Positions 5,163-54,958 of a DNA stretch of 64,000 bases are shown here, in pieces. Each line of letters begins with the position of its first letter. The first letter of the stretch is position 1. The position numbers and the translations under genes are program-made. Origin of the DNA: a virus (taxonomy: Duplodnaviria; Caudoviricetes); the IMG/VR virus record IMGVR_UViG_3300044652_000025, positions 64,001 to 128,000 of that record. One strand, 5' to 3'. A model generated the notes under the pieces. It had not been told where the DNA came from, did not search any database, and saw nothing but the letters and a program-made list of their open reading frames with translations.

Positions 5163-5206
5163 GCTGGCGGGTACCTCCTGGGTAGATGCTGCGGGCTACG
5201 AGTTGT

Positions 5207-5235
5207 ACCTTAGCAAGGTTCCTTGATGAAGGCAA
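5207..5235 (-). promoter_or_regulatory. sigma-A-like promoter TTGCCT-17-TAAGGT
   Basis: Spacing and position upstream of the DUF932-like gene. Confidence 0.55.
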
Positions 5236-5254
5236 GTAGTTTCACGAGATTTTT

Positions 5255-5536
5255 CTATGATCCTCTTCCTTGGCTCCAGAACCAGTCGTGAGCGCACTCG
5301 ATGAGGAGGATGGCGATCGAATGGTCGATGGCGAAGCGGAGCCGCTCGTCGTCAGGTCCGACGGCGACGTGCTCGCAGGCGAAGCTGCCGTCCTCGAAGA
5401 AGGACAGCTGGCCGGTGCAGGTCAGGGGATGGTGCGGGGCCGGGGTATGGGCGTCGTACCCGCCCGGCCCGTAGGACGACGCCGACAGCGTCGCCTGGAG
5501 GCTGATCTCGCTCCGGTTGTGAATGGGACCGTTCAC
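5255..5536 (-). CDS. hypothetical protein
   Basis: ORF in operon orientation. Confidence 0.5.
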   Translation of the reverse strand: MNGPIHNRSEISLQATLSASSYGPGGYDAHTPAPHHPLTCTGQLSFFEDGSFACEHVAVGPDDERLRFAIDHSIAILLIECAHDWFWSQGRGS

Positions 5537-7888: not shown

Positions 7889-8298
7889 GGCTGCTCCTCT
7901 GTCACATCCACCAGGTGAGGTTCGACGGTGACGTCGATCGTGATTTCCATTCCAGCTTCGTAATCGGGCCTGAATCGGGGAAACCGCCCGGCCTGGATCA
8001 TAGAGATCAATTTGGTCAAACCATTGTTGGCGTAGATGGAGACAGGATTGGTGAACGACACACCCATCGCCACAGCAGCCTCTGCCTCTTTCATATTTTG
8101 GACGAAGCAGAGTTCAATGGCCTGATGCTGGCGTATCGGTAAGAGCGGCAGTTGCTCGTACAGGTACTCCAGATCCCAGAGCGTCCACTCGACCCCGTCA
8201 GGGTCGGTGAGTGTATCGATGCCCTCGGTCTCGTAACAGGCCCGAAAGGCCTGGAGGTTCCTGAGGAGCGACCTCAGCGTCGCCACGTCGAGCGCCAC
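7831..8298 (-). CDS. sigma-70 region 4-like HTH protein
   Basis: LPIRQHQAIELCFVQNMKEAEAAVAMGVS; GTG start after GGAAGG. Confidence 0.7.
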   Translation of the reverse strand: MALDVATLRSLLRNLQAFRACYETEGIDTLTDPDGVEWTLWDLEYLYEQLPLLPIRQHQAIELCFVQNMKEAEAAVAMGVSFTNPVSIYANNGLTKLISMIQAGRFPRFRPDYEAGMEITIDVTVEPHLVDVTEEQPCRQFDEESTGHLKMKRTA

Positions 8299-8433
8299 GG
8301 ACCACCTTCCCGCTGGCCTCCGCATGGCGCCCTGTAACCGGACGGCCGGGAAGAAGCGGCCCGGCTCCGCAGGGTCATACCCTACATTGTCTCCACCGAA
8401 CCACTTGGAGTGATGGTCGTCAAGAGGATCGTG

Positions 8434-9120
8434 TCACTGGTACCCGGTGAGCGAGTCCTTCAGTCTCTGACCGAGCCTCTCCATGGCCTTCACGAGAGCG
8501 TCGGCACGGTGACTCAAGGCGCTGAGGTAGATGGCGAAGTAACGCTCTTCGCGAGCCTCCAGATTGCCAGCTGCCCTGCGGTCATCGACGGTGCCCGTCA
8601 CCGGGGCATCGAACCCGATGGCAAACTGCTCCTCGAATTGGCCCCGGGCCATGGTGGCTTCCATGCGGATGTCAGCGGCGCGCTGATCCCAGTCGAAGAG
8701 GCGGTGGGTGATCGCGAACAACAGGTGCTCGCGCTGGGTCCGGGACAGGCGCGTGAAGTCCTCGTCGAACTGGCCATTTGGCAATCTCTTCCAGATGACG
8801 AAGCCGTGCTGGTTCCGTTTGATCTCACCGGTGATCTCGTCGACCTCCGGCGTTCGGACGGCTTCGAGAATCTCGTTCATGACCTCAAAAGCGTCCGGGA
8901 ACTCCATCAGGATCTTGCCCTCGACCGCGGCCTTGGCCCGCTGGATGACCGGGCGATCCTCGGAACGCCAGTCGAGGCGCATTCGGGCGAATCCCGGCGA
9001 CCGCATGGGGTGTTCCGTGGGCACATCGGCGGGCTGATCGATGGTCTTGCTCTCCTCGTCGGCTACCGCGTCGGCGGCGGGTTCCTGGCCGTACTGATGG
9101 CCTTGCGGGATGCCCTTCAC
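8434..9120 (-). CDS. conserved hypothetical phage protein
   Basis: GTGA coupling with the RuvC-like gene; coiled-coil C-terminus. Confidence 0.6.
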   Translation of the reverse strand: MKGIPQGHQYGQEPAADAVADEESKTIDQPADVPTEHPMRSPGFARMRLDWRSEDRPVIQRAKAAVEGKILMEFPDAFEVMNEILEAVRTPEVDEITGEIKRNQHGFVIWKRLPNGQFDEDFTRLSRTQREHLLFAITHRLFDWDQRAADIRMEATMARGQFEEQFAIGFDAPVTGTVDDRRAAGNLEAREERYFAIYLSALSHRADALVKAMERLGQRLKDSLTGYQ

Positions 9121-9683
9121 GTCGCCTCCCTGGCGGCGACCCAGGCCAGGGCCACCGCGTCGATGATCGCCTCGTTGAGCGGTTTGAGCAGCGCCAGACC
9201 GGGGACGAGGTGGAGCAGGCACGTCTTGACGTCGTACTTCTTGGCGTTGCCGTTACCGGTGATGACCTTCTTGGCGTGCTGCGCCCCCACCATTTTGATC
9301 GGTATCTCCCGGGCGTGGGCCGCGGTCCGCAACGCCGTCGCCGAGACGAGCGACGACTCCGGCCGGGCCATGTGGTTCCCAACGGGCGGTAGCTCGTGGA
9401 CGATCACGTCGGGGCGGTACTCACCCAGCAGACGCATGTACTGCCGGAAACACTCGACGGCGCGCTGGAGGGTGTCCTCGTGGCCCTTGTCGATCGGATC
9501 GGTCTTGAGGTTGCCACCTGCCTCGACGCGGAAGGTGTCCCGGTCGCTCCAGACGTAGGCCCAGCCACTGTTGGCGATCGACTGGTCGACGGCCAGGATC
9601 CAGCCCTCGTAGCGGTACTCCTCCTCGATGTTGCGGAGGGGCTTCGGTTCCTCCCGGAACTGGGCCAGCGCATCGAGGCTCAC
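9117..9683 (-). CDS. ruvC: RuvC-like Holliday junction resolvase
   Basis: ILAVDQS...GWA, PDVIVHE, KKVITGNGNAKK, DAVALA. Confidence 0.85.
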   Translation of the reverse strand: MSLDALAQFREEPKPLRNIEEEYRYEGWILAVDQSIANSGWAYVWSDRDTFRVEAGGNLKTDPIDKGHEDTLQRAVECFRQYMRLLGEYRPDVIVHELPPVGNHMARPESSLVSATALRTAAHAREIPIKMVGAQHAKKVITGNGNAKKYDVKTCLLHLVPGLALLKPLNEAIIDAVALAWVAAREAT

Positions 9684-10226: not shown

Positions 10227-10987
10227 GCCGAAAGTCCCGCACCCATGGGACAGACCAGCCTGGCAGGGCAGGCCTGCGATTCCTTGGAGCCCGGACCGCA
10301 GCACGGCAGCGGCGGGACGAGGTCGGCGGCGGCCTGACGGACCCGGAGGTACTTCTCCCGGACAGCATGGGCGAAGTAGTCGTCGGCGTTGAGGACGATC
10401 TCCCGCATCTCGTAGGGCCAGTCGAGGGACAGCAGGAGCGTCCGGTGGCGCCGATAGCCCGAGAGTCGCATGTACTCCTGGGCCTGGGCGACGTAGACCG
10501 GCTGGAAGAGCCGGTACCACTCGGCCAACTCCGGATCCTCCGGAGAGAGCCGCGGCACCTTGGCCACCTTGGCGGGGCGCATCGTCTTGAACTCGAAGAC
10601 CTCGTCGGAGAGCGTGCCGTCCATGTGGCCGCGGGCGCCGGTCTCCTTGTCCTCGACGGCGACCTCGGTTCCGGTAAAGAGCCCACAGTCGGTGCCGACC
10701 TTCTCGATGAAGCTGTGCCAGAACTTCCCCTGGGTGACAGCCATGACGCCGTGGGGATCGAAGTCCTCGCCGACGAGACGCTCAGGCTCGGTGAGGTACC
10801 AGTAGAGCATCCGCTCTTCCCAGAGCGGGTGGGTGGAGGGGTGGAAGTAGCCGTCCGGCGGCCGGGCCTGGAAGCCCCCGACCTTGACCTGGAACGACTT
10901 GAAGCTGGGGTCGAAGAGAGCGGCCCGGATCACCGGGATGACGACCTCTCCTTTGTCGACCGCCGACAGCACCTTCCTGAAGTTCAC
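10223..10987 (-). CDS. Cas4-like PD-(D/E)xK exonuclease
   Basis: FHPS, G..WH, GHMDG...FEFKT, QAQEYM, C-terminal CC..C..C. Confidence 0.75.
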   Translation of the reverse strand: MNFRKVLSAVDKGEVVIPVIRAALFDPSFKSFQVKVGGFQARPPDGYFHPSTHPLWEERMLYWYLTEPERLVGEDFDPHGVMAVTQGKFWHSFIEKVGTDCGLFTGTEVAVEDKETGARGHMDGTLSDEVFEFKTMRPAKVAKVPRLSPEDPELAEWYRLFQPVYVAQAQEYMRLSGYRRHRTLLLSLDWPYEMREIVLNADDYFAHAVREKYLRVRQAAADLVPPLPCCGPGSKESQACPARLVCPMGAGLSA

Positions 10988-11442
10988 GGAATGCCGGGCT
11001 CTGGGAGACAGGGGGATCCACCTGGATCCTTTCCCTGGCCGTAGAACAACTCGTGGGCTCGCCTGTATGCGGCGAGTTCCTCGGTGAGGGTCTCGATCGT
11101 GTCGAGCATTTCCTGGAGGTCGGCCATCTCGATGACCACCAGATCGGGATCCACCTCGGTCAACCGGTCGTTGCGGTAGAAGCGGATCGGGATACAGGGG
11201 CGTTCGCCACCGGCCTGATGGACCGCCTTGGCCCACATCCGTCGGCCCACCCCGATGCTCTCGCCGCGGGTGGCCTTACAGTCCCAAGCAAATGCAATTG
11301 CGGTTGATTCGCAATAACGATCTTGGCGCCCATCCATGGGACCGTTCCACTGGTTGCCGGAGCCGCGACTCTGGCGGCCCCCGAGACGGTCGGTGACATC
11401 AGCCTCATGGTGCTTGCTCATAGCCCGGTTGAGGTCAGCCAT
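10984..11442 (-). CDS. PD-(D/E)xK nuclease / Hjc-like resolvase
   Basis: HE...GG..SRGSGN...DG...WDCKAT. Confidence 0.65.
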   Translation of the reverse strand: MADLNRAMSKHHEADVTDRLGGRQSRGSGNQWNGPMDGRQDRYCESTAIAFAWDCKATRGESIGVGRRMWAKAVHQAGGERPCIPIRFYRNDRLTEVDPDLVVIEMADLQEMLDTIETLTEELAAYRRAHELFYGQGKDPGGSPCLPEPGIP

Positions 11443-11683
11443 CGCACGCGGTCCCGTCGGACTGTCGCCACCAGTGGACCCGGTACATGCCGTCCCAGTA
11501 CATGAACTTCCAGTGCCAGCCAAGGATCTTGCCCTGGCGAACCCGGATCGTCGTTCGCACAGGATCGGCGTCCCGTAGCGGCTGGTCCGTCATTTGGCAC
11601 ACCCTTGCCGTAGGAACCAAGCTCGTAGGCCGCCCACCGTTTTGCGGCTCACGGATTTCCCGCATCGGCACATGCCGTACCAC
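11435..11683 (-). CDS. hypothetical protein
   Basis: ORF in operon orientation; start uncertain. Confidence 0.4.
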   Translation of the reverse strand: MVRHVPMREIREPQNGGRPTSLVPTARVCQMTDQPLRDADPVRTTIRVRQGKILGWHWKFMYWDGMYRVHWWRQSDGTACDG

Positions 11684-13166: not shown

Positions 13167-16100
13167 TCAGCATGGCTGGTACTTCTTGAGTTGGCATCCT
13201 CGCTCGTTCTTGGCCAGTAAGGCGAGGGCCATCTCGTTCTGGCGGATATCCCGATGGTACTTCTCCCACGCCTCGTGGAACACGACCACGTCGATGTCGC
13301 CGTCGCGGGCGTAGAGCGTCATGAAGGCCATCTTGCGTCCGTACCTGTCCTGGGTAGGGCGCAGCCGTGACACCACCGCTAGGACGAGGTATTCCCCGTC
13401 GTCTCCGTTGCCGACTTCCTCGGCGGTGTGGCAGTCCTCCAGGATCGAGGGGTGGACGGTGTCGAACGGGGTCGACGAGAGGGCGATCCCGAGTAGCCGC
13501 TCTTCGATGGTCCGGATCTCGGCGTCGCTGTAGCGCGCTCCGACGGCCACACCCTCCCGGGGGGCGTACTGACGGCAGGCCCGAGAGCACTTGGCCGGGA
13601 GACCGGGCTGGTTCTTGAGGGGTCTGCCACTCTTGCCGAGCTTGGGCGGCTCCGTGAACCAGTCGAAGGTGCAGGGCAGCCCGGGGACATCGGCCCACCA
13701 CCGGCAGTCGGCCGAGGGGATCGGTTTGTTGGCCTGGAAGTCGAGATGGTCCACCAGAGCGCGGCGGTTCTCGATGAGCCGGTCGAAGGCTCCGACCTCG
13801 ACCAGGGTCCGGGTGACCCCGGAGTTGGCGGCGCGGCCTTTCCTGGCCAGGTAGTCGTCCCAGGAGGTATAGGGCTGCCCGGCGACGATGTCCTTGACCG
13901 CGGCGTCGCCGATGCCCTTGATCTGGTCGAGCCCGTAGCGGATGCCCCGGGGTGTGACCTTGAAGCCCACCCCGCTCTCGTTGATGTCCGGCGGCAGGAT
14001 CCGCAGCCCCATCCGCCGGGCCTCCTGGATCACCTCCGGGAGACGGCCCTTCTCCTCTGTGGACAATAGTGCGGTGAAGAATTGCAAGGGATAGTGGAAC
14101 TTTAAGTAGGCTGTCCAAACGCCCAAGATTGCATAGGCCCATGCGTGGCTTCTATTGAAACTATATTTTGCAAATTCGGCCAGCTGCTCCCAGAGCGCCG
14201 CCATGGCCTGACGGTCGTGACCGCGTGCGAGACAGCGGGTGATGAACCGCTGGCCCTCCTCGGGTATCCGGCTGGTCTTCTTCTTGCCGAGGATCCGGCG
14301 GACCTCGTCGGCCTCCTCCGAGGTGTAGCCGCCGAGGATCATGCAGGTCTGCATGACCTGCTCTTGGTACAAGATGCAGCCGAACGTGTCGCCGAGGTAG
14401 TGCTCCAGCGACGGATGGGGGTAGGTCACCGGCTCCAGCCCGGCCCGACGCTGGAGGTACATCTTCATCAGCCCGGAGTTCTTGGGGCCGGGTCGGCCGA
14501 TGGTGATGAGGTCGGCCAACTCCCGGAGTGACCGCGGTCTGAACTCCTTGGCGATCTTGGTGTTGGCCTTGGTCTCGATCTGGAAGATGCCGAGGGTGTG
14601 GCCCTTTCCGATCTCCTCCCACATCAACGGATCGTCGTACTCATTTTTCCATGAGTAGACGTCGATCTCGACGCCCTCCTGCTCCCGGATGAGATCGACG
14701 GTCTTCTGGATCGTGTCCAGATTCCGAAGATTCAAAAGATCGAACTTGACCAGACCCAGGGACTCCAGGGCCTCCATGTCGAACTCGGCCACCAGCTGGC
14801 CGTCCTTGGCGGCCCACAGCGGCAGCCGGTCGATGAGCGGCTCGTCGGGGGAGATCACGAACCCGGCGGCGTGACGTCCGTAGGACTTGAGACGGCCCAC
14901 CATCCGGTCGGCGTAGGCGAAGAGCGTGGGGTACTTCTCCCGGTAGGGGTTCAAGGTCTCGGCGTGGGCCTCCCACATCTCGTCCCATGGCATCCCGAGG
15001 CCCGCGGTGCTGGCCTCGATATCGTCGATGTGCTTCGCCACCAGGTCCATGTCGGGGTAGAGCCGGGGGTTGTCGATGGCCTTGTTGAGCACCCTGGTCA
15101 GATCCCGGATGACGCCCTTGTTCTTGAGCCGGAGGTGGGTGCCGACCCGGACGACGCGGTCGGCGCCCCAGCGCTCGACGGCGTAGGCGGCCATCCGGTC
15201 TTTCTCCGAGGACGGATAGTCGACGTCGAAGTCGGGCAGGGCGGCCCGGCCCTCGGTCAGAAAGCGCTCGAAGAGCAGGCCGGTATCGACGGGGTCGATC
15301 TCCGTGATGCCCATGAGGTAGGCGACCAGCGAACCCGACCCCGAGCCCCGGCCCGGCCCCACCAGGATCCGGTTGCGCTTGGCGTAGTCGACCTGGTCGT
15401 GGACCATCAGGTAGTAGCCGCAGAACCCCTTGTCGATGAGGAGCTTCATCTCCCGCTCGAAGCGGGCCTCGTAGACCTCCTGGCCGCTGCTCTTACCCAG
15501 CGTCTTGGCCCAGTTGCCGAGGCAGATCCGCAGCAGCCGGTCGACATCGGCCGCCGGACCACCACTGCGCGAGAACACCGGCGGGTCGGCCCGTCCGACC
15601 ATGGAGGCGGTGCAGCGCTCGGCCACGGCGACGGTATTGGCCATGGCCTCGTCGATCACCGCGGCCGGGAGGTAGCCGAGGGCTTTGGTGACTTCACCGG
15701 CGGTCATCAGGTGGTAGTCGTGACCGCCGGAGAACAATCCGGTGTCCTCGGCGATGCCGTCCTTCTTGGGGATCTGGACAGCCAGCCAGGTGGCGTGGGC
15801 GTCCTTGTCGTCGGGACAGGCATAGTGGCTGTCCACCGCGGCCACCAGGGGCAGAGAGTACTGGCGGGCCAGATCGACCAGGAGGTCGTTGACCTTGCGC
15901 TGCTCGTCAAGGGCGTTGGTGTGGATCTCCACATAGAGTCGGTCCCGGAAGATGTCGTTCAGCCGGGCGAGGTTGGCCACCGCCAGGTCGTAGGCTTCGT
16001 GCTTGAGCAAGGGGTGGGCCAGCGGGCCGCGGAGGCAGGCAGTGGAGGCAATGACGCCGTCGCTGAGCCGCGACAGGGTGTCCCAGTCCATCCGAGGCTT

Positions 16101-16727
16101 GCCGTAGAAGCCATCACGGTAAGCCTCGGTGCTCATGGCCCAGAGGTTGCGGAGTCCGGCGTCGGTCTCGGCCAGCAGGATCAGGTGGTAGTAGTCGAGG
16201 CTCTCCCGGTCGAAGCGGTCGTGGACGAGATAGGCCTCGATCCCGAAGAGGGGCTTGATCCCGGCCTTGGCCGCCTTGGCCGCCAGGTGAGGGTGAGCGG
16301 CGCAGGCACCGTGGTCGGTGACGGCCAGGGCGGGCTGTCCGTCGGCCACCACCGCGGCGATCATCTCGTCGATGGTCGAGTAGCCGTCCAGGGCCGAGTG
16401 TTCGCTGTGGGCGTGGAGGTGAACGAAGCCGGTCGTCCGTTCGGCCTTGGCCGCCCGGCGTAGCTGCCGGTAGGACGGCGTCGGATGCGGGCAGGGCCGG
16501 AGGTCAGGGATCTCCACCTCGGCCCCACCGAAACGCGACGGCGGGTCGCCGTCCACCAGCCAGTAGCTGTCGCCGACGATGACCGCGGCGATCGAGTGGT
16601 TCATGGCGTTGTCGTAGACCCAGGACGGGAACCGCGCCTCGGGGACGAGGAGCATCCGGATGCCGTCATCATCCTCGACGACCGTGACCCCCGGGAAGTA
16701 CTCCTCTGCTATTCGATATTGGCCCAC
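13167..16727 (-). CDS. dnaE: DNA polymerase III alpha subunit
   Basis: PHP domain HLHAHSEHSALDG, GPGRGS, PDFDVD, KFDLL, FNRSH, OB-fold end; GTG start at 16727 after GGGGAG. Confidence 0.95.
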   Translation of the reverse strand: MGQYRIAEEYFPGVTVVEDDDGIRMLLVPEARFPSWVYDNAMNHSIAAVIVGDSYWLVDGDPPSRFGGAEVEIPDLRPCPHPTPSYRQLRRAAKAERTTGFVHLHAHSEHSALDGYSTIDEMIAAVVADGQPALAVTDHGACAAHPHLAAKAAKAGIKPLFGIEAYLVHDRFDRESLDYYHLILLAETDAGLRNLWAMSTEAYRDGFYGKPRMDWDTLSRLSDGVIASTACLRGPLAHPLLKHEAYDLAVANLARLNDIFRDRLYVEIHTNALDEQRKVNDLLVDLARQYSLPLVAAVDSHYACPDDKDAHATWLAVQIPKKDGIAEDTGLFSGGHDYHLMTAGEVTKALGYLPAAVIDEAMANTVAVAERCTASMVGRADPPVFSRSGGPAADVDRLLRICLGNWAKTLGKSSGQEVYEARFEREMKLLIDKGFCGYYLMVHDQVDYAKRNRILVGPGRGSGSGSLVAYLMGITEIDPVDTGLLFERFLTEGRAALPDFDVDYPSSEKDRMAAYAVERWGADRVVRVGTHLRLKNKGVIRDLTRVLNKAIDNPRLYPDMDLVAKHIDDIEASTAGLGMPWDEMWEAHAETLNPYREKYPTLFAYADRMVGRLKSYGRHAAGFVISPDEPLIDRLPLWAAKDGQLVAEFDMEALESLGLVKFDLLNLRNLDTIQKTVDLIREQEGVEIDVYSWKNEYDDPLMWEEIGKGHTLGIFQIETKANTKIAKEFRPRSLRELADLITIGRPGPKNSGLMKMYLQRRAGLEPVTYPHPSLEHYLGDTFGCILYQEQVMQTCMILGGYTSEEADEVRRILGKKKTSRIPEEGQRFITRCLARGHDRQAMAALWEQLAEFAKYSFNRSHAWAYAILGVWTAYLKFHYPLQFFTALLSTEEKGRLPEVIQEARRMGLRILPPDINESGVGFKVTPRGIRYGLDQIKGIGDAAVKDIVAGQPYTSWDDYLARKGRAANSGVTRTLVEVGAFDRLIENRRALVDHLDFQANKPIPSADCRWWADVPGLPCTFDWFTEPPKLGKSGRPLKNQPGLPAKCSRACRQYAPREGVAVGARYSDAEIRTIEERLLGIALSSTPFDTVHPSILEDCHTAEEVGNGDDGEYLVLAVVSRLRPTQDRYGRKMAFMTLYARDGDIDVVVFHEAWEKYHRDIRQNEMALALLAKNERGCQLKKYQPC

Positions 16728-17007: not shown

Positions 17008-17979
17008 TCAGTCGTAGTTTTTGATCCCTCCGGACGTTGCCTCATTGGCGTGCTCGCCCGGCGTCTCACCACCGGTGCTGTAGCTCCGGACGCGGCTGGC
17101 GAGATCCTTGAGGCGCTCTTCGTCGACGTCGTTCTGGGCCTTCGGCTCGGGAGCGGCGCCGGTCTCTTCGACCTTGCCCTCCTTGCCGACCTTGATCCGG
17201 GGATCGAAGAACAGGCCGTAGAACCGGTCCGACGCCTGGTCGGTGATGATTTCGGCGAGGTCGTAGACGCCGTCGTAGCGCTTCCCCCACTCGGTGAAGG
17301 AACCGTCCGGGGTGGTCACGGCCAGCTTCTCGTTGCTGCGGTCGTCTTTGATCGGGTCCAGCGGGATGATCCGGTACTCGGTGTCCGTCGTGGACCCCTT
17401 CCGAGTGATCTTGTAGTCCCGGTCGGTGATGGTGCCGTAGTGCCCGGCGAAGCCCTGGAGCGCGCCCCAGAAGTTCTTCCAGCCCTGGGAGACGACGACG
17501 ATGTCCTTCTCCTTGACGACCTCGGTCTGGTCCGAGTCCGGCCGCTTGCGCTCGACCTCACGGATCTTGTCGCGGATCCCCACGACCTTGCCGTCTTCGA
17601 TGACCTGCTCCCGGAGGCAGGCGAGCGCCCAGGTCCGGGGACTGGCCTTCTTCACCTGCTTGTCCTTGCCGACGAGGAACTCGCAGATGTAGCAGTCGGG
17701 AAACATCCGCTTGCCGGTGGGCTCGACGAAGGCGGGGTCGTTACGGCAGATGGCACCCATCCGCTCGGGCCAGTTACCAGTGTGACCGTCGGGCTTGCCC
17801 TTGGTCGGCACCTGGGTGTGCTGGTCGACAGTGATCCAGTCGGTCGCCTCGGTGATGAAGCGGAGGATGGCAGTCTCGCCATCCTTGATGCCGAACCACT
17901 GGGTGCGAGCGAAGTTGGGGGATGCCTTCTTGGCAGCCTCCTCCGCGACGTCGCCACCCTTACGGAATGCAGGACTCAT
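17008..17979 (-). CDS. single-stranded DNA-binding protein (gp32-like)
   Basis: KDGETAILRF, CYICE, TDRDYKITRKG..TEY; position in the replication module. Confidence 0.7.
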   Translation of the reverse strand: MSPAFRKGGDVAEEAAKKASPNFARTQWFGIKDGETAILRFITEATDWITVDQHTQVPTKGKPDGHTGNWPERMGAICRNDPAFVEPTGKRMFPDCYICEFLVGKDKQVKKASPRTWALACLREQVIEDGKVVGIRDKIREVERKRPDSDQTEVVKEKDIVVVSQGWKNFWGALQGFAGHYGTITDRDYKITRKGSTTDTEYRIIPLDPIKDDRSNEKLAVTTPDGSFTEWGKRYDGVYDLAEIITDQASDRFYGLFFDPRIKVGKEGKVEETGAAPEPKAQNDVDEERLKDLASRVRSYSTGGETPGEHANEATSGGIKNYD

Positions 17980-17997
17980 GGCTCTCTCCGTTCTCAG

Positions 17998-18855
17998 TCA
18001 TTGAAAAATGTTGGCGATCTGATCTGCTGTCAATGGGTTAGGGATGTTCAGCGGGTTCAGGAAAATGACGGTCCGGCGGCCGACGGACTTGACCATCCAC
18101 GGCTCAGGCTGGTTGTACCACCCGACGGCGAGCCGCCGCGTGATACCTCGGTCGGAGAAGGCCTTGGCCAGCAGGCCTCTCCATTCGTCGAGGCGGTACC
18201 GACCCGACACCGCGGTGCCCCATCGGTACCAACCCCAACGACCCTCGGGTAGGGTACGTCCATCCTCACCGCTACAAGATCTCTTGTCAAGAGAAAACTC
18301 TCGATTGATGAGGTGCGTCAGGTCGACCTCTACCAAAGGTTGAGCGTCATCCACCGCCGCCAGACGGGACTGGCGGACCTCCTCGGCGATCCGGCGGCGG
18401 ACCTCGGCCTCCACCTCGGCGTCGAAAAACACCGAGCCCACCGGCGTGGCGTCGTAGCGGGCGCGGATCTCGTCATTGAGCAGCTGCTTGAGGACGTAGG
18501 TCAGCCGCGGCGACTCCGGGCCACCTCGGGCAATGTAGGCCTCGCGCAGCTGGGCCTTCGTGGCCCAATGGTGGACCCCGAGATCACGGTAGTAACGGTT
18601 GACGTCCCACACGACAGGACGGTACGGCTCGACCGTGACAGAGGTCGTGAACTCCGGCCAGCTGGGATCGCCCTCCAGGCGCGGGTCGTTGGCCCTGGGC
18701 AGGAGGACATGCCAAGCCTCCCAGGAATCGCACCGGCTGCACGGCGCCTCCTGGTCGAGCGCGCCGACGTACCACCGCCGGTCGGTCTCGACCAGGCAGG
18801 CGTCACACAAACGGACGGAGTCGAGGTCAGTCCTCGGAGCCGTCTTCGTCGGCAT
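17998..18855 (-). CDS. degenerate J-domain protein with N-terminal CxxC pairs
   Basis: YYRDLGV..AT..QLREAY...RARYD; HPD motif absent. Confidence 0.65.
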   Translation of the reverse strand: MPTKTAPRTDLDSVRLCDACLVETDRRWYVGALDQEAPCSRCDSWEAWHVLLPRANDPRLEGDPSWPEFTTSVTVEPYRPVVWDVNRYYRDLGVHHWATKAQLREAYIARGGPESPRLTYVLKQLLNDEIRARYDATPVGSVFFDAEVEAEVRRRIAEEVRQSRLAAVDDAQPLVEVDLTHLINREFSLDKRSCSGEDGRTLPEGRWGWYRWGTAVSGRYRLDEWRGLLAKAFSDRGITRRLAVGWYNQPEPWMVKSVGRRTVIFLNPLNIPNPLTADQIANIFQ

Positions 18856-21441: not shown

Positions 21442-23453
21442 CGGAGTTCCGTCGGCCGGGGCATCTCACACACATCGTTGCTACAGAAACGATCGCCCTC
21501 GGGATCGACTCCATTCTGGTAGATGGGAGCCCACTCGATGCGTCTTACACCCTGGGTCGCCACCTCGAAGGCATCGGCGGTGATGGCCTCGTAGGGCATC
21601 TGGGGATAGGCCCCACCGTCATGCATGGGCAGAAAGGACATCGTCTTCAGCTGGCCGTCGAAGGCGTGGAGCAGCGGCCCGATCTGGTCCTTCTCATGGG
21701 CCTGGAAAGTGAAGGTGGCGCTGACCATGTTGTCGGCCCAGTGGTTCTGGAGAGTGGCCGCCAGGGCCACCTTCTCCCAGACGACGACCTCGCGGGTCGA
21801 ACGCACCTGCGGACCCATGGTGGGGAAGCTGACGACCACGGAGTTGGTGTCGGCCACGTCGGGCTCGACCCAGTAGCCCGCCTCCTCGAAGACCTGGACC
21901 ATCGGGTCGGCCTGCCGGAAGCGCATCCGGCGGATGTACGTGTCGTGCTCCGGCCAGTGGGCGCCGGGGGTGACCCCGGCCAGCAGGCTCACCGTACCGG
22001 AGGGCTTGACCGACGTCTTCTTGATGGACTCCCGGACCCCGAGCCACTCGGAGTACTGCCGGTCGCGGCGAGTGATCTCGGCGTAGCCCATGTCCAGCCA
22101 GTCCCGGAGCTTCGTCCAGCCGTGGCGCTCCACGAACTGGGCGACCCCCGACACCGAGCAGCCGATGCGCCGGTTGCGGGTCATGACCTCATTGGACTCC
22201 GGCCAGTGGGTACTCATGAGGGTCACGGCCTTGCCGTAGAGGTAGGCGCACTTGAGCGTCCGCAGGAAGTCCTCGACGGTGTCGTGGTGGATCGGGTACG
22301 TCTCGACCAGGGTGCAGAGTTCGTTGTCCTCCAGGGTCTGCTCGGCGCATGGGTTGCAGCCCTTGGCCCGGTAGTCCCGGTTGTTGGGCGGGTCACCCAG
22401 ACGGCCGTGGGAGCGCATGAGGTCGAGGTACACCAGCCCCGGCTCGCCGTTGACGGCGATCTGCTCCACAAGGTCGTCGTAGTTACCGCCGACCTCGGCC
22501 TGGATGGAGTTGTTCGACATCCAGCCCCAGCCGTCGTGACCCATCCGGTCCGCGTTCACCGCCGGGTCCTTGAGGAGGAGGAACGCCTTGTCGTCGGGCT
22601 GGCCGAGAGCAAGCTCGGCGCTCCGGCGGACGTTCCCGGCCACCACGCAGCGGCCGATGAGGTTCATGATGTCCACGATGTCGGTCGACGTGATCGGCTG
22701 GCCGCCGCGGTCGGCCAGGAGACCCCGGAGGCTGCCGTGGAGCTTCCGGAGTGGACCTGGTCCGGCCGCGGTGCCCCCGAAGCGCTTGATGGGCTCCCCG
22801 GCCGGGCGGATCTCGTCATAGAGGAAACGGACGGAGCGCTGGCCGGGGAGGAGGTAGGACCGCAGCAGCCGATCGACGGAGTCGCACCAGCCCTCTCGGC
22901 TGTCGTGGATCATGACCTCATCGAAGGCGCTCTGGGGGTGGTGGATGGTCAGCCGTCCGGCGCCCAGGGTGTCGAAGCCGACGCCGACGCCCAGCATGGA
23001 CATCTCCATCAGCCGGGCGAAAGGCAGGGCGGGGTTACGCGGTCCCAGGCTCTCGGTGCTCAAAAAGGCGCAATTCTGAAGGGCAGCTGAACCTTCCTCC
23101 CAGACGAAGGGCACGCCCATCATCCAGATGCCTCGGCCGGGCGGGGTCCACTTGAAGGTGAACATCCGCTCGTACATCTCCTCGGCGGCCCGGTGGGCCT
23201 TGGGGTGGTACCACGGCGTCCGCTGGCGCTGGCAGTGGTCCTTGAGGATCGAGTAGGTCCCCTCGACGACGCGGCGGCAGGCTTCGTGCCAGCGCTCCTT
23301 GGTGCCGTCGGGCTTGACCCGGGAGTACTTGGTCAGGAACGTAAGCTCCCCGAGGGAGTTACCACCGCCGCAGTCGAAGCCCCAGGGGACGGGCCGGTCG
23401 ACGTAGGTCGCCACGAACTCGTCGGCCAGTCTGAAGCTCAGATGGTCAGTCAC
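21438..23453 (-). CDS. nrdJ: class II (adenosylcobalamin-dependent) ribonucleotide reductase, monomeric RTPR type
   Basis: PPGRG, QNCAF, GVGVGFD, GNVRRSA, NPCAEQ, KPSGTVS, C-terminal CSNDVC. Confidence 0.93.
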   Translation of the reverse strand: MTDHLSFRLADEFVATYVDRPVPWGFDCGGGNSLGELTFLTKYSRVKPDGTKERWHEACRRVVEGTYSILKDHCQRQRTPWYHPKAHRAAEEMYERMFTFKWTPPGRGIWMMGVPFVWEEGSAALQNCAFLSTESLGPRNPALPFARLMEMSMLGVGVGFDTLGAGRLTIHHPQSAFDEVMIHDSREGWCDSVDRLLRSYLLPGQRSVRFLYDEIRPAGEPIKRFGGTAAGPGPLRKLHGSLRGLLADRGGQPITSTDIVDIMNLIGRCVVAGNVRRSAELALGQPDDKAFLLLKDPAVNADRMGHDGWGWMSNNSIQAEVGGNYDDLVEQIAVNGEPGLVYLDLMRSHGRLGDPPNNRDYRAKGCNPCAEQTLEDNELCTLVETYPIHHDTVEDFLRTLKCAYLYGKAVTLMSTHWPESNEVMTRNRRIGCSVSGVAQFVERHGWTKLRDWLDMGYAEITRRDRQYSEWLGVRESIKKTSVKPSGTVSLLAGVTPGAHWPEHDTYIRRMRFRQADPMVQVFEEAGYWVEPDVADTNSVVVSFPTMGPQVRSTREVVVWEKVALAATLQNHWADNMVSATFTFQAHEKDQIGPLLHAFDGQLKTMSFLPMHDGGAYPQMPYEAITADAFEVATQGVRRIEWAPIYQNGVDPEGDRFCSNDVCEMPRPTELR

Positions 23454-25762
23454 GATCCTCCCAGTTGGGTCTCGCCCCGGACGATGAAGTGAGCACTCTC
23501 AACTTCCCAGATCATCGAAAAATGTTTGAAGTCTTCCCGGCGGGCGGCGAGGGTATGGAACAGCGCCTGCGGTGGTATGGCGGCGCGCTGATCCATCGAC
23601 TGGTAGAGACCGAACACCCAGTCAGCCCCTCGCTCCACTCCGGCGGAATCAGCCAGGTCGCTCATCTCGTAGTAGCCGCGTCGGAAGGCGGCTTTCACCC
23701 CTTCTCGGTTGATCTGGTGAGCGAGCAGGCAGGGTATGCGGCGACGGCCGGTGCCAATGAGGTCACTGAGCGTCCGGATCGAGTCCGAGATCTGGAGGTC
23801 GTAGCGCAGCTTCGGGTTCTCGTGGACGACGTGGCTCAGCTGGTCGATCAGCAGGCTCTCGGTGTCGCGGACCTGGGCGTCCCGGACGAGAGCGGCGACG
23901 CGGCGCTTCTCGATCGGAGGGTGCAACACATGGAATGGCGCCCCGGCACCCGGCAGATCATTGATCCATGACCTGACACGGTCGACCTCGACGTCGGAGC
24001 ACGTCCCGCACTGCCAGCCGCGGTAGGACACCCCAGTCGCCAGGCAGGCGATCCGGTCGAGGGTCATCTCGACCGAGTTCTCCAGGGTGTAGAGCGTCAC
24101 GCACTTGCCCCGCTCCCACTCCCGGAGGGCGACGAGGTCGAGGAAGAAGCTGTTGTGCGTGACAAGGAAGTCCTCTGTCACATAGAGGCCATCTGCCGCC
24201 GCGACTTGGATGCAGACGGTATCTCCCCGTCCTGCCGGAGTGACCTCCACGATGCGCCTAGAAGGACGGCGGGCACGCAAGCTCGGACGCTCGTCGTAAT
24301 CCCGGCGCTTTCGCGGAAGACGGAATGGGCACTCAGGCAATCTCAGTCTGATGATCCAGGCCGGACGCCCGGCGCCGCCTTGATGCGATGGCTCCGGCTT
24401 GTACTTGACCCGGGCCGTGCCCCCCAGAGAGAGCACAAGTTCCCTCACGGCCAAAGCCAACCGCTCCGAAGTGGAGCAGAAGGTGATGCCCTTGCCATCC
24501 ACACCGCCCTCGGTGTCCAGCAGGCCGGAAAGGAGTTGACGACGCTCGTTGATAGTGGCCCGCAGGTACCGATCAGGGATGAACTTCTCCCAGGACCGGC
24601 ATCCCATGAGGCCCATCTCCCGAAGTGCCGCCGTGGTCCGGCCTCCGACGATGGATGCCAATCCACGGCGCTCCTTGATCCAATGCCGCTCGTCACCCTG
24701 GGGAAGCAGCCGGTCGATCTCACCATGAAGCCATGGCTCCGGCTTACAAAAGGTCGGCGTACAGACCGTCAGCGAACCGTCTCCGAGCAACAGCCCGAGC
24801 AAGTAGGGATGGAGCGGGAGCGGACCGAGATCCTCATAGCGCACCGGGGCCACCATGGGCAGGTAGGCGAAGCGCCGATTGGTCTGGATCTTTCGGGCCA
24901 GCGTCTCGGTGTCCACCGTCTGCACCTTCCCGCCGTGACTGTGGGGATGCACCGTCCAATCATGAGCGACATCGACCACCACCGACCCGCCGTCGTCGGT
25001 CGTCACCCTCATGAGGGGACGATCCGACCATCTCCGCATGGCGATGACGGCCGTGGCGCGACCATCACTTCCGATCACCGCGTCCCCGGGCCGGAGCGAG
25101 CCGATCTGACGCCATCCTCCAGGCGTGAGTACCAGACTGGTCACCGCCTCGGCCTTCCCCACCTTCGGCCCGGCGGCCAGGACGGCAAGCTCCCCCGGCT
25201 TGATGCCGTTGGTGTAGGCGTCGATCGGGGTGAGCCCGAAGGTCATGCCCTCGATGACACCGCGGTTGGCGGCGCGGGCGTCGTAGCTCCGCATCCTGTC
25301 GGCCAGCGCTTCCCGGGCGTCGACGGCGTCATCCTTACGGGTGACCTTCATGGCCAGTGTGACCAGCTGGTCGGCGGCTTCGGAGACCACGGCCGGGCGC
25401 TCCTCGAACGTCGCCTCACGCACCGACATGGCGAACTGCCGGTTGAAGTGGTCGGCCTCCTTGATGAGGTAGGTGCCCTTCAGATCCTGGAGCGCCCACT
25501 CGATGGAGTCGTCGGGCTCCTCGTCGATGTCGATCTCGGCGTCGTTGAGGGCGTCGGCGTAGATCGGCTCGGCCAGGAAGGCGGCGACGGATGGGGCCTT
25601 GGTCTGGCCGCTCTGGTGCCAATAGTCGACCGCGAAGGCCACCAGGGGACGGAGGGCCTCGTCGGGGACGATCTCGGGCTCCAGCCCCTGACGGGCGATG
25701 ACCGCCACCGAGTCGGCGTCGGTCAGATGCTTGATGAGGCAGGCCAGCCCGGCGGCGCTCAT
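23450..25762 (-). CDS. dnaB: DnaB-like replicative helicase with intein
   Basis: AAGPKVGK|intein|S, TLEN, LLIDQL, HQINR, SAGVERGAD. Confidence 0.9.
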   Translation of the reverse strand: MSAAGLACLIKHLTDADSVAVIARQGLEPEIVPDEALRPLVAFAVDYWHQSGQTKAPSVAAFLAEPIYADALNDAEIDIDEEPDDSIEWALQDLKGTYLIKEADHFNRQFAMSVREATFEERPAVVSEAADQLVTLAMKVTRKDDAVDAREALADRMRSYDARAANRGVIEGMTFGLTPIDAYTNGIKPGELAVLAAGPKVGKAEAVTSLVLTPGGWRQIGSLRPGDAVIGSDGRATAVIAMRRWSDRPLMRVTTDDGGSVVVDVAHDWTVHPHSHGGKVQTVDTETLARKIQTNRRFAYLPMVAPVRYEDLGPLPLHPYLLGLLLGDGSLTVCTPTFCKPEPWLHGEIDRLLPQGDERHWIKERRGLASIVGGRTTAALREMGLMGCRSWEKFIPDRYLRATINERRQLLSGLLDTEGGVDGKGITFCSTSERLALAVRELVLSLGGTARVKYKPEPSHQGGAGRPAWIIRLRLPECPFRLPRKRRDYDERPSLRARRPSRRIVEVTPAGRGDTVCIQVAAADGLYVTEDFLVTHNSFFLDLVALREWERGKCVTLYTLENSVEMTLDRIACLATGVSYRGWQCGTCSDVEVDRVRSWINDLPGAGAPFHVLHPPIEKRRVAALVRDAQVRDTESLLIDQLSHVVHENPKLRYDLQISDSIRTLSDLIGTGRRRIPCLLAHQINREGVKAAFRRGYYEMSDLADSAGVERGADWVFGLYQSMDQRAAIPPQALFHTLAARREDFKHFSMIWEVESAHFIVRGETQLGGS
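24152..25153 (-). mobile_element. class 3 intein with LAGLIDADG homing endonuclease (334 aa)
   Basis: Ala1; block B HDW; block F VCIQV; block G VTHN|S; LLGLLLGDG and LLSGLLDTEG motifs. Confidence 0.9.
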
Positions 25763-28545: not shown

Positions 28546-29286
28546 TCACCGGTTGTACGCGTTCCGGAGGTAGAGCGCGGCCGACGGTTCGGAGCGCTCG
28601 GTCGCTTCTCGGATGGCGTTGATCAGGGAGGGCTTGCGCTTGAGGGCCAGCATGACCTTGTGTTCGTCCACCACGCGGGTCTGGGTCGTCATCTCCAGGT
28701 AGTCCTCGTTGGTGAAGTCCAGGTCGGGCCGGTCGATCAGACTCTTGAGGGTGTCGGCGTTGAGGGTGCAGCTACCCTCCCGGACCTCCCGGGTGAACTT
28801 CTTGCCGGTGCCCGGTGCCCCGAGGCATTCGCCCCGCACGATGAAGTGACCGCGCTTGTCGAGGTGGGCGGTAGCCGTCAGCCCGGCCTCTTCGGCCTCG
28901 ATGTCGAGGTGGGTGAAGATCGTGGTCCGCATCCCCTCGTGGCGGTCCTCCACGAGCTTCTTCAGCTGATCGAGGACCTGCTTCTCCTCGACGAGCGCGG
29001 TCACCTCGACCGGCTGGAGCTTGCGCCGCTCGGTCGGCACCACCTTGCCGAACACCTCGGGCAGACGCTCGATGGCCTGGCGCTGGGCGTGGGTGATGAC
29101 CGCCACCGACGGCTCCGGCCGGGGCTGGTCGAGCGGCACCGGCTCCTGCGGGGTGATGGTGCGGAGCAGGTCAGTGAAGGCGATGGCGCCGGTGTTGATC
29201 TTGCCGACGACGAGCCGGACGATCTCGTCGAGGGCGGCGGGCTGCTGGTCCTGTGCCGGGTCTTCCCGAGTCAGGTCTTCAGTCAT
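28546..29286 (-). CDS. conserved hypothetical phage protein
   Basis: Strong coding pattern; ATG at 29286. Confidence 0.65.
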   Translation of the reverse strand: MTEDLTREDPAQDQQPAALDEIVRLVVGKINTGAIAFTDLLRTITPQEPVPLDQPRPEPSVAVITHAQRQAIERLPEVFGKVVPTERRKLQPVEVTALVEEKQVLDQLKKLVEDRHEGMRTTIFTHLDIEAEEAGLTATAHLDKRGHFIVRGECLGAPGTGKKFTREVREGSCTLNADTLKSLIDRPDLDFTNEDYLEMTTQTRVVDEHKVMLALKRKPSLINAIREATERSEPSAALYLRNAYNR

Positions 29287-29340
29287 TTTTCGATCTATCC
29301 CCCGGGTGCGTGTGTCAACAATTCTTGAGACAGAATAGCA

Positions 29341-36048: not shown

Positions 36049-37590
36049 CTAGGACCGGGCCAGCCTCAGGATCTCCCGCCGGTGTGCCGCCGACACGAAC
36101 CCCTCCTCGTCGGCGTCGGCGTCGAGGAGCGCATCGGACCACTGGTTTCGCTTGAGGATGAGCCCGGCGATGGCTTCCTCGACGGTGCCCCGGGCGATGA
36201 AGCTCATCACCGTCACCGACGGGTGGGTGGAGTCGATCCGGTGGATCCGGTCCGAGCGCTGCACGTAGGCGGCGTAGGTCAGCGGCAACTCGTAGTGGAT
36301 CGCGTAGCTCGCCTCGGGGAGGTTGATGCCCCGCTGCCCGGCGTCGGAGGTCAGGAAGATCTGGGCCTGCCCGGCCCGGAAGGTGGCCTGAGCGGCGTCG
36401 CGGGCGTGCTGGGACAGCTGGCCGTGGTTGACGGCCACGGAGTACCCGCACTCCTCCAGCCGCTCCTGGATCAACGGCAGGACACTCTGGCCGAAGAAGG
36501 TGAAGATCACCGCCTGGGCACCCTGACCCTCTACGAGAGGTTGAAGGTACTCGACGAGGCGATCGAGCTTGGTCGAGCCCAGCGCCCGGAGCCCGGCCTC
36601 GCCGACCTCCCGGACAATGGTCCTGGAGATCTCCGACTCGGAGCGCACGAGGCTGGCCGGATGCCCGGCGATCTGACGCAGGATGGTGAAGACGGACGCG
36701 TCGTCGGCGCCCCGGAAGAGCCCATCGACCGTGTCGTAGAACTCCAGGTGGCGCCGGTCGAGATCAACGTAGGTGACCTCCTCCACCCGCCGCGGAAACT
36801 GCTCGATGACGTCGGGATCGGTCTTGCGCTTACGGAGCATGACCGGAGCGAGCTTCTGAGCCAGCGCCGGGATGTTCTTCCACTTGACGACGTTGCCGTA
36901 GATGTCCCGAGCCTCGACGTGGTCGTGCTCGAAGGAGTCGACAGTGCCGACAGTCGCCGGAGTGAGAATCCGACCGAGGTTGTAAAGGTTCTCCGGGCCG
37001 TTCTCGACCGGCGTCGCCGTCAGACCCATCACGCGGGTCACGGCGCACGACCTCAAGTGATTGATCAATGTGGCGTGGTGCTTGTGATTCTGACTGGAGC
37101 GATTACCGAGCTTCGTCATTTCGTCGAAGATCATCAGCACGCGCTGACCAGCGAATGCCTCAGCCAGGAAGTGCGGAGCCAGCCGTTTGGTCTTCCGACC
37201 GTTCACCGCCACCGGATGCGCGGCGTCGTTTCTCACGGTTTCGTATGTTCCGATCAGCACCTGAGGGAGATCATCGAGGATCCGCCGCCGAGTAGTCGGG
37301 GCGCCCTTGTAGACGCGGTGCGTCAACCGGGTGAAGCGCTCCAGGTCGGCGTCCCACTCGGTGAGTTTGTTCCGCTCACACACCACGAGACATAGATCGA
37401 TGAGTCCGTCCTCGAAGAGCATGGCGGCGGTAGCCATACCGATGTGCGTCTTGCCGATCCCAGTGTCGTAAACGACAAGGTTGTCATTCCGGAGGAGGGC
37501 GTAGGCGACCGCCTCGGCCTGAAAGGGCAGCAGACCCCAGGGTGAGGAATAGAGCGGCTGGGCCGGTGCCTCAGGGTTGGCGAGACTCAT
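36049..37590 (-). CDS. SNF2-family helicase
   Basis: DTGIGKT, FDE, GLTATPVEN, DAGQRGINL, QRSDRIHRI. Confidence 0.9.
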   Translation of the reverse strand: MSLANPEAPAQPLYSSPWGLLPFQAEAVAYALLRNDNLVVYDTGIGKTHIGMATAAMLFEDGLIDLCLVVCERNKLTEWDADLERFTRLTHRVYKGAPTTRRRILDDLPQVLIGTYETVRNDAAHPVAVNGRKTKRLAPHFLAEAFAGQRVLMIFDEMTKLGNRSSQNHKHHATLINHLRSCAVTRVMGLTATPVENGPENLYNLGRILTPATVGTVDSFEHDHVEARDIYGNVVKWKNIPALAQKLAPVMLRKRKTDPDVIEQFPRRVEEVTYVDLDRRHLEFYDTVDGLFRGADDASVFTILRQIAGHPASLVRSESEISRTIVREVGEAGLRALGSTKLDRLVEYLQPLVEGQGAQAVIFTFFGQSVLPLIQERLEECGYSVAVNHGQLSQHARDAAQATFRAGQAQIFLTSDAGQRGINLPEASYAIHYELPLTYAAYVQRSDRIHRIDSTHPSVTVMSFIARGTVEEAIAGLILKRNQWSDALLDADADEEGFVSAAHRREILRLARS

Positions 37591-53299: not shown

Positions 53300-54958
53300 C
53301 TACGCACTCTTGAAAGCCGCGGTGACGGTCGAGTCCTGGGAGGCGGTGGTGGTCATCGTCTCAGTGGCCGACGCTCCGGCCGATGCCTGCACCACATCGG
53401 TGAACCCGGCCCAGACCCTGGCCCCAGGTCCCGCCAGCTGCGTCCGTGCCGCGGCAGAAGCCCCTGACAAGGTCGGGTTGCCGGGGTTGGGGTTGGCCCA
53501 GTGAGCGAAGCCGTAGACGACCAGATCATTGGCCAGGGTCGTGGTGACCGAGGCAGCGTTGATGTTGCCGCCACCACTCGATCCGCTGGAGACGTCGACG
53601 GGGCTGGACTGCACCACGCCGGAGTAGGCGGCGAAAGCAATGGCGAAGTCATTACCGCCGACGTTGCTCCAAGTGAGAGTGGCGCCGAGATCCCCGGCGG
53701 CGGCGATCTTGTACCACATCCCGGAGTTCAGGTTGGCGGTATTCACCTGCTGAATCGATGTCCAGCCGCTGGGCACTGTCCAGGTCGGCGTCCCGGCAAA
53801 GGACGACGCGACCATGGCCACCATGAGGTCACCGGTCTGGACGGCGGCCGGGACGGTGATGCTGGCGGTGTTGGCCGTACCGCCGCCGTTGGTGGCGCTG
53901 GAGGCCCGATAGGTGGGCGGTCCCGTCGAGGTGCGGTTCTCGACCCCGAACTCGGCCCCGTTGACTTCGGCGATCAACCACGCCGCAGCCGTCGCCGGAG
54001 ACTGGTCAAAGTACCGTGAGACCAACCCGAAGCTCGTACCGAGTGCTACATCCGAGCCCGGGTAGTTGGTGCCGCCGATGCGGGCCACCTGCCGGAAGTT
54101 CTGGGCGCCAGTGTCGGTCTTCTCGATATACGAGCGGTGAGCGACTCCCCGGACGAGTGATGTCGTAGCGACGAGATCGGCGTAGGCATAGGTGTCGATG
54201 TTGCCGAGTGTCCCGGTCTCAACGTATGTGGTGGTGACCGGCGATCCGGCTTCGTTGACCAGCTGGTAGTTGTTCACCGAGTCACCGTCGGAACCGACCC
54301 ACTGGCTGTAGTTGCCGTTGCCGTTCGGATAGAGGGTCTGGACGGAGCAATCGCCGAGGAAGTCGTTGTTGACCGACCCGGCGCCGTTGCAGATGTAGAG
54401 GTCGTCGATGTAGATCCCGTTGGCCATGAAGTCGTCCCAGAAGGCGATGCCTTCAAAGACGGTGTTGGTCCCGCCGTTCTTGGTGTTCTGGCCGGTGAGG
54501 TTCAGGACGTCGCCGCCGTTGAGACGAATGTTGACGACGCCGACAGTGGCCGAGAGAGTGACCTTGACCTCGACGTACTGCCACGATCCGGGGACGATGA
54601 TGTTGTTCGAGGTCTGGCCCAAGATCGTGTTGGTGGCGTAGACGGAGCCCCGCCGGGCGGTCAGCCGGTTGTTGGTGTCGAGGTAGATGGTGTCGTGGAT
54701 CGTGCCCCAGTTGTCGCTGTAAAAGCGCAGCAGTTCAGTGGCCGTGGCCCCGGCGGGTTTCATGGCGAAGCCGACGATGAAGGTGACGTGGGTGTCGGGC
54801 GTGTTGGCCAACCAACGGGAGAGATGCTGGTTGCCGGTCGGCATCAGCCCACAGGTCGTCCCGGTGCGCTGGTTGGCCGTATTCAGGGACATGGAGAACT
54901 GGTTCCACTTCGATCCCTGGAGGCCGTCGTCGAAGCCTTCGATGAACAGGAGACTCAT
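53300..54958 (-). CDS. beta-sandwich virion protein with an extra C-terminal domain
   Basis: MSLLFIEGFD...DDLYICNGAGSVNN...NGAEFG; then VQTGDLMVA..PSGWT domain. Confidence 0.7.
   Translation of the reverse strand: MSLLFIEGFDDGLQGSKWNQFSMSLNTANQRTGTTCGLMPTGNQHLSRWLANTPDTHVTFIVGFAMKPAGATATELLRFYSDNWGTIHDTIYLDTNNRLTARRGSVYATNTILGQTSNNIIVPGSWQYVEVKVTLSATVGVVNIRLNGGDVLNLTGQNTKNGGTNTVFEGIAFWDDFMANGIYIDDLYICNGAGSVNNDFLGDCSVQTLYPNGNGNYSQWVGSDGDSVNNYQLVNEAGSPVTTTYVETGTLGNIDTYAYADLVATTSLVRGVAHRSYIEKTDTGAQNFRQVARIGGTNYPGSDVALGTSFGLVSRYFDQSPATAAAWLIAEVNGAEFGVENRTSTGPPTYRASSATNGGGTANTASITVPAAVQTGDLMVAMVASSFAGTPTWTVPSGWTSIQQVNTANLNSGMWYKIAAAGDLGATLTWSNVGGNDFAIAFAAYSGVVQSSPVDVSSGSSGGGNINAASVTTTLANDLVVYGFAHWANPNPGNPTLSGASAAARTQLAGPGARVWAGFTDVVQASAGASATETMTTTASQDSTVTAAFKSA

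Follow-up and report, generated by a model that had tools for sequence, protein, structure and literature searches.

Conflict between phages and homing endonucleases is known from the T-even phages, where it takes the form of target-site polymorphism, co-conversion tracts, intronless homing and marker exclusion, as with SegG on gene 32 and mobE on nrdA, and the homing-cycle model for inteins and introns requires empty sites that have turned immune. To our knowledge, clear natural phage examples of such immune empty sites are few, and most of them come from T-even phages. We describe here a putative further case in a stretch of 64,000 nucleotides (hereafter the window; bases 64001-128000 of the single 151,490 bp virus record IMGVR_UViG_3300044652_000025, Caudoviricetes), in which 40 codons of the dnaE-type DNA polymerase III alpha gene are re-spelled with A/T third positions and rare codons.

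The re-spelled motif includes the Y^(C/S)FN(K/R)SH junction (here and below ^ marks an insertion point), which is the site of the cyanobacterial split DnaE intein. Junction and motif are the same, and four sibling proteins have a contiguous intein there; the difference is that the gene described here has no intein, that its empty site is re-spelled, and that a second insertion site of the family (W^T, occupied in protein P0029) falls within the same tract. As at the targets of T-even homing endonucleases, a short divergent tract lies in a conserved essential gene at an endonuclease site, with the protein intact and the allele here putatively uncuttable. Unlike those cases, no endonuclease gene lies beside dnaE, no intein occupies the site and the donor was not found. 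A eukaryotic parallel comes from the WHO elements of Torulaspora, where substitutions in a 28-bp site of the essential FBA1 gene lead to LAGLIDADG resistance; in mutagenesis of a LAGLIDADG target, one in three single synonymous changes conferred resistance, and the site is under positive selection (bioRxiv 10.64898/2026.08.13.744650). The WHO element, however, brings a replacement gene half and stays adjacent, whereas here the re-spelled patch stands alone.

The genome has a GC content of 66% and holds nearly all of its genes on the minus strand. The G+C content at third codon positions (GC3), taken across about 44,800 codons, is 0.87, A/T third positions making up 13%. Words from its sequence were found in soil and rhizosphere metagenome runs belonging to some 15 studies. 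Among 50,697 deposited phage genomes the closest DnaE is 33% identical in amino acids (Gordonia and Mycobacterium phages), and metagenomes contain a large clade of siblings of about 150 kb whose DnaE proteins are 45-69% identical. The 1186-amino-acid start of DnaE is common to the contig L005 and to near-identical metagenome copies, and Pfam PHP, DNA_pol3_alpha, finger and HHH_6 domains are on record for an identical protein (P0002/P0126). The features on which the argument turns are as follows.

13167 to 16727, minus strand: dnaE-type DNA polymerase III alpha gene, 1186 amino acids; the open reading frame (ORF) continues upstream to 16877.
14058 to 14177, minus strand: main recoded patch, 40 codons (EFAKYSFNRSH...FFTALLST) with A/T third positions and rare codons.
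14160 to 14165, minus strand: intein site d, junction of TAT (Tyr855) and AGT (Ser856), with inteins in P0014, P0069, P0082 and P0118.
14112 to 14117, minus strand: intein site e, junction of TGG (Trp871) and ACA (Thr872), with the P0029 intein between ...LGYW and TAWLKFH.

The main patch comprises codons 851-890 of DnaE (901-940 of the long ORF) and opens GAA TTT GCA AAA TAT AGT TTC AAT AGA. Half of its third positions (20/40) are A or T, its arginine and serine codons are AGA and AGT, and its five leucines are spelled TTG, TTA, TTG, CTA and TTG, which makes TTR four of five as against 10% of leucines genome-wide, TTA itself representing 1% of them. The flanks (15 codons before, 20 after) are G/C-ending almost throughout. 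When each codon was scored as log2 of uniform over genome usage and maximal segments were sought, the patch reached 36.3 bits, whereas the highest segment among 50 genomes whose synonymous codons had been resampled stood at 18.5. The segments that outscore it are nearly all wrong-frame N-terminal ORF extensions, with one exception inside a 1655-amino-acid gene (genome ~137128-137478, outside the window); that segment aside, the dnaE patch is the strongest in-frame patch of the 151-kb genome. A sequence-only reading of the window had described an abrupt AT-rich synonymous patch here with the protein motif intact, and this description is confirmed in sharper form.

An independent JGI contig from another sample (L005) carries the same block letter for letter, with 15 differences over 3,561 nucleotides (99.6% nucleotide identity), and the identical patch peptide is present in six proteins of the 90% cluster, meaning that the block is real and fixed in a species-level lineage. 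An assembly artefact is ruled out on the same grounds, L005 coming from another metagenome. Four soil and rhizosphere runs yielded contigs too fragmentary to carry weight: their same-strain pieces show no differences over 14058-14117 and leave the remainder of the patch uncovered. Strand-coordinated deaminase clusters, another candidate source of the changes, were dismissed on inspection, since transitions on both strands and transversions occur. The dnaE tract is a genuine and striking re-spelling.

Sibling DNA with the site intact was available from L002 (68% amino acid identity), L003 (65%), L033 (53%), L034 (49%) and the intein-bearing L004 (55%). All five spell the motif in G/C-ending codons, with a GC3 in the patch of 0.86-1.00 as against 0.55 here. 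Nucleotide identity between siblings is 75-86% within the 120-nucleotide block and 53-75% in the flanking 120-nucleotide segments, whereas identity between the window and the siblings is 59-68% in the block, not above that of its flanks. The motif is therefore a clade-wide peak of DNA conservation, which this lineage has lost while keeping the protein. Scanning the siblings (6-24 kb each) for patches yielded, ORF-extension artefacts aside, three small runs rich in A/T third positions (AT3), all in little-conserved parts of minor genes and two of them C-terminal. No comparable patch was found in the DnaE, DnaB, RecA or ribonucleotide reductase (RNR) motifs of these sibling sequences, which indicates that the recoding is specific to the present lineage.

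The intein sites were placed by pairwise BLASTP and inspection of the junctions in 14 DnaE homologues of 1,460-1,790 amino acids. Five insertion places were recognized: a, HSE(H/Y)^(S/C); b, VDY^ (GFC^ in one variant); c, TFG^C; d, AKY^SFN; and e, LGYW^TAWLKFH. Inteins at site d are 280-330 amino acids long and terminate in ...(Q/A/H)N^SF(N/G). Sites d and e, with 16 codons between them, both lie inside the patch, so that the earlier identification of the dnaE motif as an intein site is borne out exactly at Y^SFN and extended by a second site at W^TAWLKFH. Around site d, 8/9 codons depart from the sibling consensus, and a 12-codon window centred there ranks in the top 0.3% of dnaE for rarity score, the corresponding window on site e ranking in the top 2%. 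Beside site e stand two residues that are rare in the family, V870 (3% of members) and Y874 (1%, tryptophan being present in 96%).

A Pfam intein splicing domain is present in all five proteins with an intein at site d or e. The only endonuclease hits in these inteins are sub-threshold HNH matches in P0069 and P0082 (E 0.001-0.004); Pfam gave no endonuclease family match in P0014, P0029 or P0118. The window itself holds a resident intein in another replication gene.

24152 to 25153, minus strand: LAGLIDADG intein (Pfam LAGLIDADG_3) inserted behind the P-loop lysine of DnaB.

This intein of 334 amino acids occupies codons 204-537 of the gene 23450-25762 (...GPKVGK^AEAV...VTHN^SFF) and begins with alanine instead of cysteine or serine. 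Its GC3 is about 0.72, and the extein codons at its junctions are almost all G/C-ending, without A/T-rich extein flanks. Sibling L034 carries a LAGLIDADG intein in its RNR. Homing elements are thus clearly present in the clade and, taken together, the weak HNH hits, the DnaB intein and the L034 RNR intein suggest that they are active there. The sole free-standing homing-type endonuclease gene found, a Pfam HNH_3 match (E 3e-9) on the plus strand at genome 42637-43047 (L044, outside the window), is strand-opposed to its neighbours and some 35 kb distant from dnaE; the rest of the genome gave neither a GIY-YIG nor a plain HNH match.

We tentatively favour, with a confidence somewhat short of even, the reading that the patch is a short replacement tract that was kept because it destroyed the targets of homing endonucleases. 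The GC-rich native spelling of EFAKYSFNRSH...WTAWLKFHYP, which varies little among the siblings, would have been replaced by another spelling of that motif, most economically through a single gene conversion or double-strand-break repair templated by a lower-GC homologue. The block holds about 30 silent changes within 120 nucleotides, beside flanks at GC3 saturation; such a number against strong GC3 pressure excludes drift, and whereas stepwise change would call for about 30 mutations each selected on its own, a single import fits far better. The wobble changes, the switches of leucine, arginine and serine codon families and the few odd residues would all be explained jointly if the imported homologue had a GC3 near 0.5. 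The A/T-richness alone says little, since at a GC3 of 0.87-0.97 any foreign spelling appears A/T-rich. A recombination tract from a low-GC relative, which the sequence-only reading had listed as an alternative, is thus the likeliest origin of the patch, and is not truly a rival to escape, whatever kept the patch in place. What probably maintained the tract is that it abolishes the sequences recognized by the putative homing endonucleases of two inteins that circulate in the clade (at Y^S and W^T), and a phage with the patch spelling would escape cutting and invasion in mixed infection. Selection for an uncuttable site is favoured because the patch overlaps two homing sites and is most densely recoded at the Y^S junction; the erased peak of DNA conservation, being what a sequence-specific enzyme could exploit, also counts for escape from homing. 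With two sibling intein sites falling inside it, escape from homing endonucleases is the best-supported reading for the main patch.

Several observations weigh against this reading. No DNA match to a donor was found in the 50,697 phage records with megablast or blastn, and the best match to the patch peptide was 79% in amino acids in a set of 5.8 billion proteins and 48-59% in IMG/VR, as judged from scans with back-translated peptides. In an alignment of 104 proteins, the amino acid identity of the patch to its two nearest relatives is 78%, as against about 87% by regression over the family, a divergence (z = -1.1 to -1.3) that is suggestive at most. The block extends 19 codons past site e, beyond the typical endonuclease footprint of 20-40 bp. 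Inteins and tolerated conversion tracts share a preference for the most conserved motifs, and a degree of overlap (roughly 15-40%) is to be expected by chance. There is no recoding at dnaE sites a (HSEH^S), b (VDY^A) and c (TFG^C), which have ordinary codons, nor at the DnaB P-loop site in the intein-less siblings L003 and L033, and it follows from the latter that recoding is not a regular response of the clade.

Further patches had been reported in the sequence-only reading, and for these the picture is mixed: those in dnaE FDLLNLRN (a small one), nrdJ and the RuvC-like gene are real, whereas those in the sigma factor and SNF2 genes are diffuse.

14721 to 14756, minus strand: second dnaE rare-codon cluster, FDLLNLRN (GLVKFDLLNLRN), with 6/12 A/T third positions.
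23064 to 23096, minus strand: nrdJ patch, EGSAALQNCAF, with 7/11 A/T third positions; one alignable sibling only.
11278 to 11343, minus strand: patch in the RuvC-like gene 10984-11523 (GPMDGRQDRYCESTAIAFAWDC), with 14/22 A/T third positions.
8062 to 8142, minus strand: diffuse AT3 enrichment in sigma-70 region 4 (Pfam Sigma70_r4_2), with 12/27 A/T third positions.

The FDLLNLRN cluster lies at a conservation of 0.79, compared with a dnaE mean of 0.56, and none of the DnaE homologues mapped was seen to carry an intein there. The RuvC-like patch likewise exceeds its gene mean (0.59 as against 0.47); the gene has no Pfam hit here, and its orthologue in L033 has a faint RuvC hit. The one RNR intein seen in a sibling, that of L034, maps to the NxC catalytic loop, away from the nrdJ patch. 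No tie between these other patches and intein sites was obtained, and the proposal that they too are scars of escape is not supported. The sigma region 4 patch is weak, as the GC3 of the whole gene is 0.76, and the SNF2 region 37050-37490 has only 22% A/T third positions, just 37050-37121 being distinct.

Nor do patches fall generally on the most conserved motifs of essential genes. In 20 genes of the replication block aligned to one to six siblings (3,881 codons with at least three siblings), A/T third positions occur at 14.1% of fully conserved and 15.7% of unconserved residues, and AT3 correlates with conservation at a Spearman coefficient of -0.03 when single codons are taken and of -0.12 when 11-codon windows are, so that the proposed comparison of sliding-window GC3 with conservation comes out negative. 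What stands of the claim is that AT3-rich windows make up 9.2% of the top conservation bin, against 3.1-3.5% in the middle bins; the least conserved bins are likewise higher, and several in-frame AT3 runs sit in poorly conserved parts.

Outside the window, A/T-wobble patches were also observed on the RHR motif of ThyX (DVSRVLTHELIRHR; L007, genome ~37157-37231, the wider segment scoring 23 bits) and adjoining the DGHHR motif of a ParB-like region (L006, genome ~54940-55149). A short A/T-rich motif occurs in both orientations, as GAAAAATGA at several start codons and as its complement CATTTTTCGATGA within or at the ends of genes, examples of the latter being the dnaB C-terminus and the end of the gene 17998-18855; places include window positions 23481-23541, 17970-18045, 1149-1218, 5196-5289 and 29259-29300, among others. 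This motif may provide a context for translation initiation or serve as a binding site. On the evidence of sibling matches (50-56% amino acid identity in L033 and L034), the true gene at window 8437-9252 is on the minus strand, and the plus-strand ORF 8410-9558, though longer, is a high-GC shadow ORF.

The patch might owe its survival to no selection at all, if short conversion tracts derived from diverged homologues of lower GC arise at any position and survive only where the two proteins are near-identical, hence in the most conserved motifs; the overlap with intein sites would then be a by-product of a preference that tracts and inteins share. Such neutral mosaicism, which we consider possible but on balance unlikely, would account for the sharp-edged, foreign-looking codon usage and the few amino acid changes within the block; the phage encodes its own RecA and RuvC-like resolvase, the FDLLNL, nrdJ and RuvC-like patches have no demonstrated intein site, and three dnaE intein sites are unaltered, all of which speak in its favour. 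The failure to find a donor in the phage records, in IMG/VR or in the 5.8-billion protein set tells against neutral import too. Moreover, siblings with the same recombination genes have no comparable patches in their motifs over the 6-24 kb available from each, conserved positions show no general enrichment of AT3-rich runs, and the recoding peaks exactly at the Y^S junction. A very different explanation is that the A/T-rich spelling is itself functional, as a rare-codon translational pause, an internal promoter or an RNA or DNA element. We give this hardly any credence: a cluster of rare codons including one TTA is indeed present, yet the spelling is found in no sibling and is thus not a conserved requirement of the enzyme. 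The main patch contains no sigma-70-like promoter on either strand, so the internal promoter envisaged in the sequence-only reading finds no backing, and likewise has no terminator and no Rfam match; its predicted RNA folding is no better than that of shuffles (z = +1.1).

Escape from nucleic-acid-guided targeting of a DNA-invariant motif, whether by host CRISPR or by the VIPR guides of rival phages, appears improbable. Directly upstream of the window lies a VIPR system with two GGY-NN pentamer arrays on the minus strand (genome 60775-61345 and 61895-62945), which flank a 166-amino-acid gene lying downstream of a 212-amino-acid Vipr-like gene. In favour of such escape, this system resides in the same genome, its roughly 31 guide units are aimed at conserved genes of relatives and spell conserved motifs of rivals, and a near match to one of these units occurs in the phage's own terL, where a seven-codon AT3 patch falls within the footprint of the guide. 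Under the rule of skipping one nucleotide, the guides match the phage's own vipr, vap and terL as well as the vipr genes of relatives. The patch also has changes at codon positions 1 and 2 that a wobble-skipping guide would feel (TTR in four of five leucines, AGA, AGT, V870 and Y874). No guide for the motif was found, however: the 31 own units did not match the dnaE patch in the window or sibling spelling, as nucleotides or amino acids, in either orientation; 25 related Vipr loci (4 from IMG/VR, 21 from metagenomes) supplied some 700 guide windows, none of which matched at the patch; and IMG/VR, scanned with gapped patterns for a vrRNA that would spell FAKYSFN, sense or antisense, gave 0 hits. 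VIPR, by its published rule and structures, skips and extrudes the third base without reading it (bioRxiv 10.64898/2026.04.26.720920,.720927, 2026.10.15.759431). Most of the changes in the patch lie at third positions, and about 20 such changes would hence gain nothing against VIPR. For CRISPR, one or two changes suffice for escape. Exact scans of 185,579 genomes, one per species, revealed no spacer with the sibling spelling: the 26-mer had 0 hits, and the 23-nucleotide spelling of A-W-L-K-F-H-Y-P had 5, in bacterial contigs (L046, L047, L048, L049 and L050, from Acidimicrobiaceae, Dehalococcoidaceae, Limnocylindria, Planctomycetaceae and Albitalea), of which the three checked sit in ORFs of 590-1000 amino acids that are cellular dnaE genes and not spacers. 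The guide-directed or CRISPR-like attack put forward in the sequence-only reading is hence without support; because the guide and spacer searches are of limited reach, we still leave it a small share of probability.

Two guide matches deserve mention in their own right. A guide of the unrelated metagenome Vipr locus L026 (position ~4792), the only strong hit among the guides from other loci, agrees at 18/18 read bases with window 15149-15175 on the minus strand, in dnaE ERWGADRVV; its register skips codon position 1 and not the wobble position, the chance expectation is about 0.1-2, and the site is unrecoded. In terL (L006:5539-5577; genome 59538-59576, outside the window), 21/26 read bases agree with the final guide unit of VIPR array 2, and the seven central codons of its footprint (TTA GAA GCT GCC AAT CCT GAA) are those of the A/T-wobble patch, the 22 codons before and 11 after being G/C-ending. 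The published VIPR rules, under which wobble bases go unread, do not account for this coincidence of guide and patch in terL. If the overlap is no coincidence, the identity of the skipped base or local duplex stability would matter to VIPR binding, contrary to the published rule. That the lineage, with its unusually large VIPR arsenal, may have systematically re-spelled its own most DNA-invariant motifs (dnaE, nrdJ, RuvC-like, terL, thyX) against all sequence-directed weapons of sibling soil phages is a broader idea that we regard as decidedly improbable.

As judged from the sequence comparisons, then, the patch is best read as a putatively immune, empty double intein site made by a short conversion, an instance of the known conflict between phages and homing elements. 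If this is true, it would offer a clean case of an empty and heavily re-spelled double intein site in the essential polymerase of an uncultured soil phage. The sibling alleles are either occupied, or empty and unchanged, so that natural substrates and candidate enzymes are in hand and resistance is directly testable. In genomes with a near-saturated GC3, a conserved protein motif becomes conserved DNA, and would hence be unusually exposed to sequence-specific attackers.

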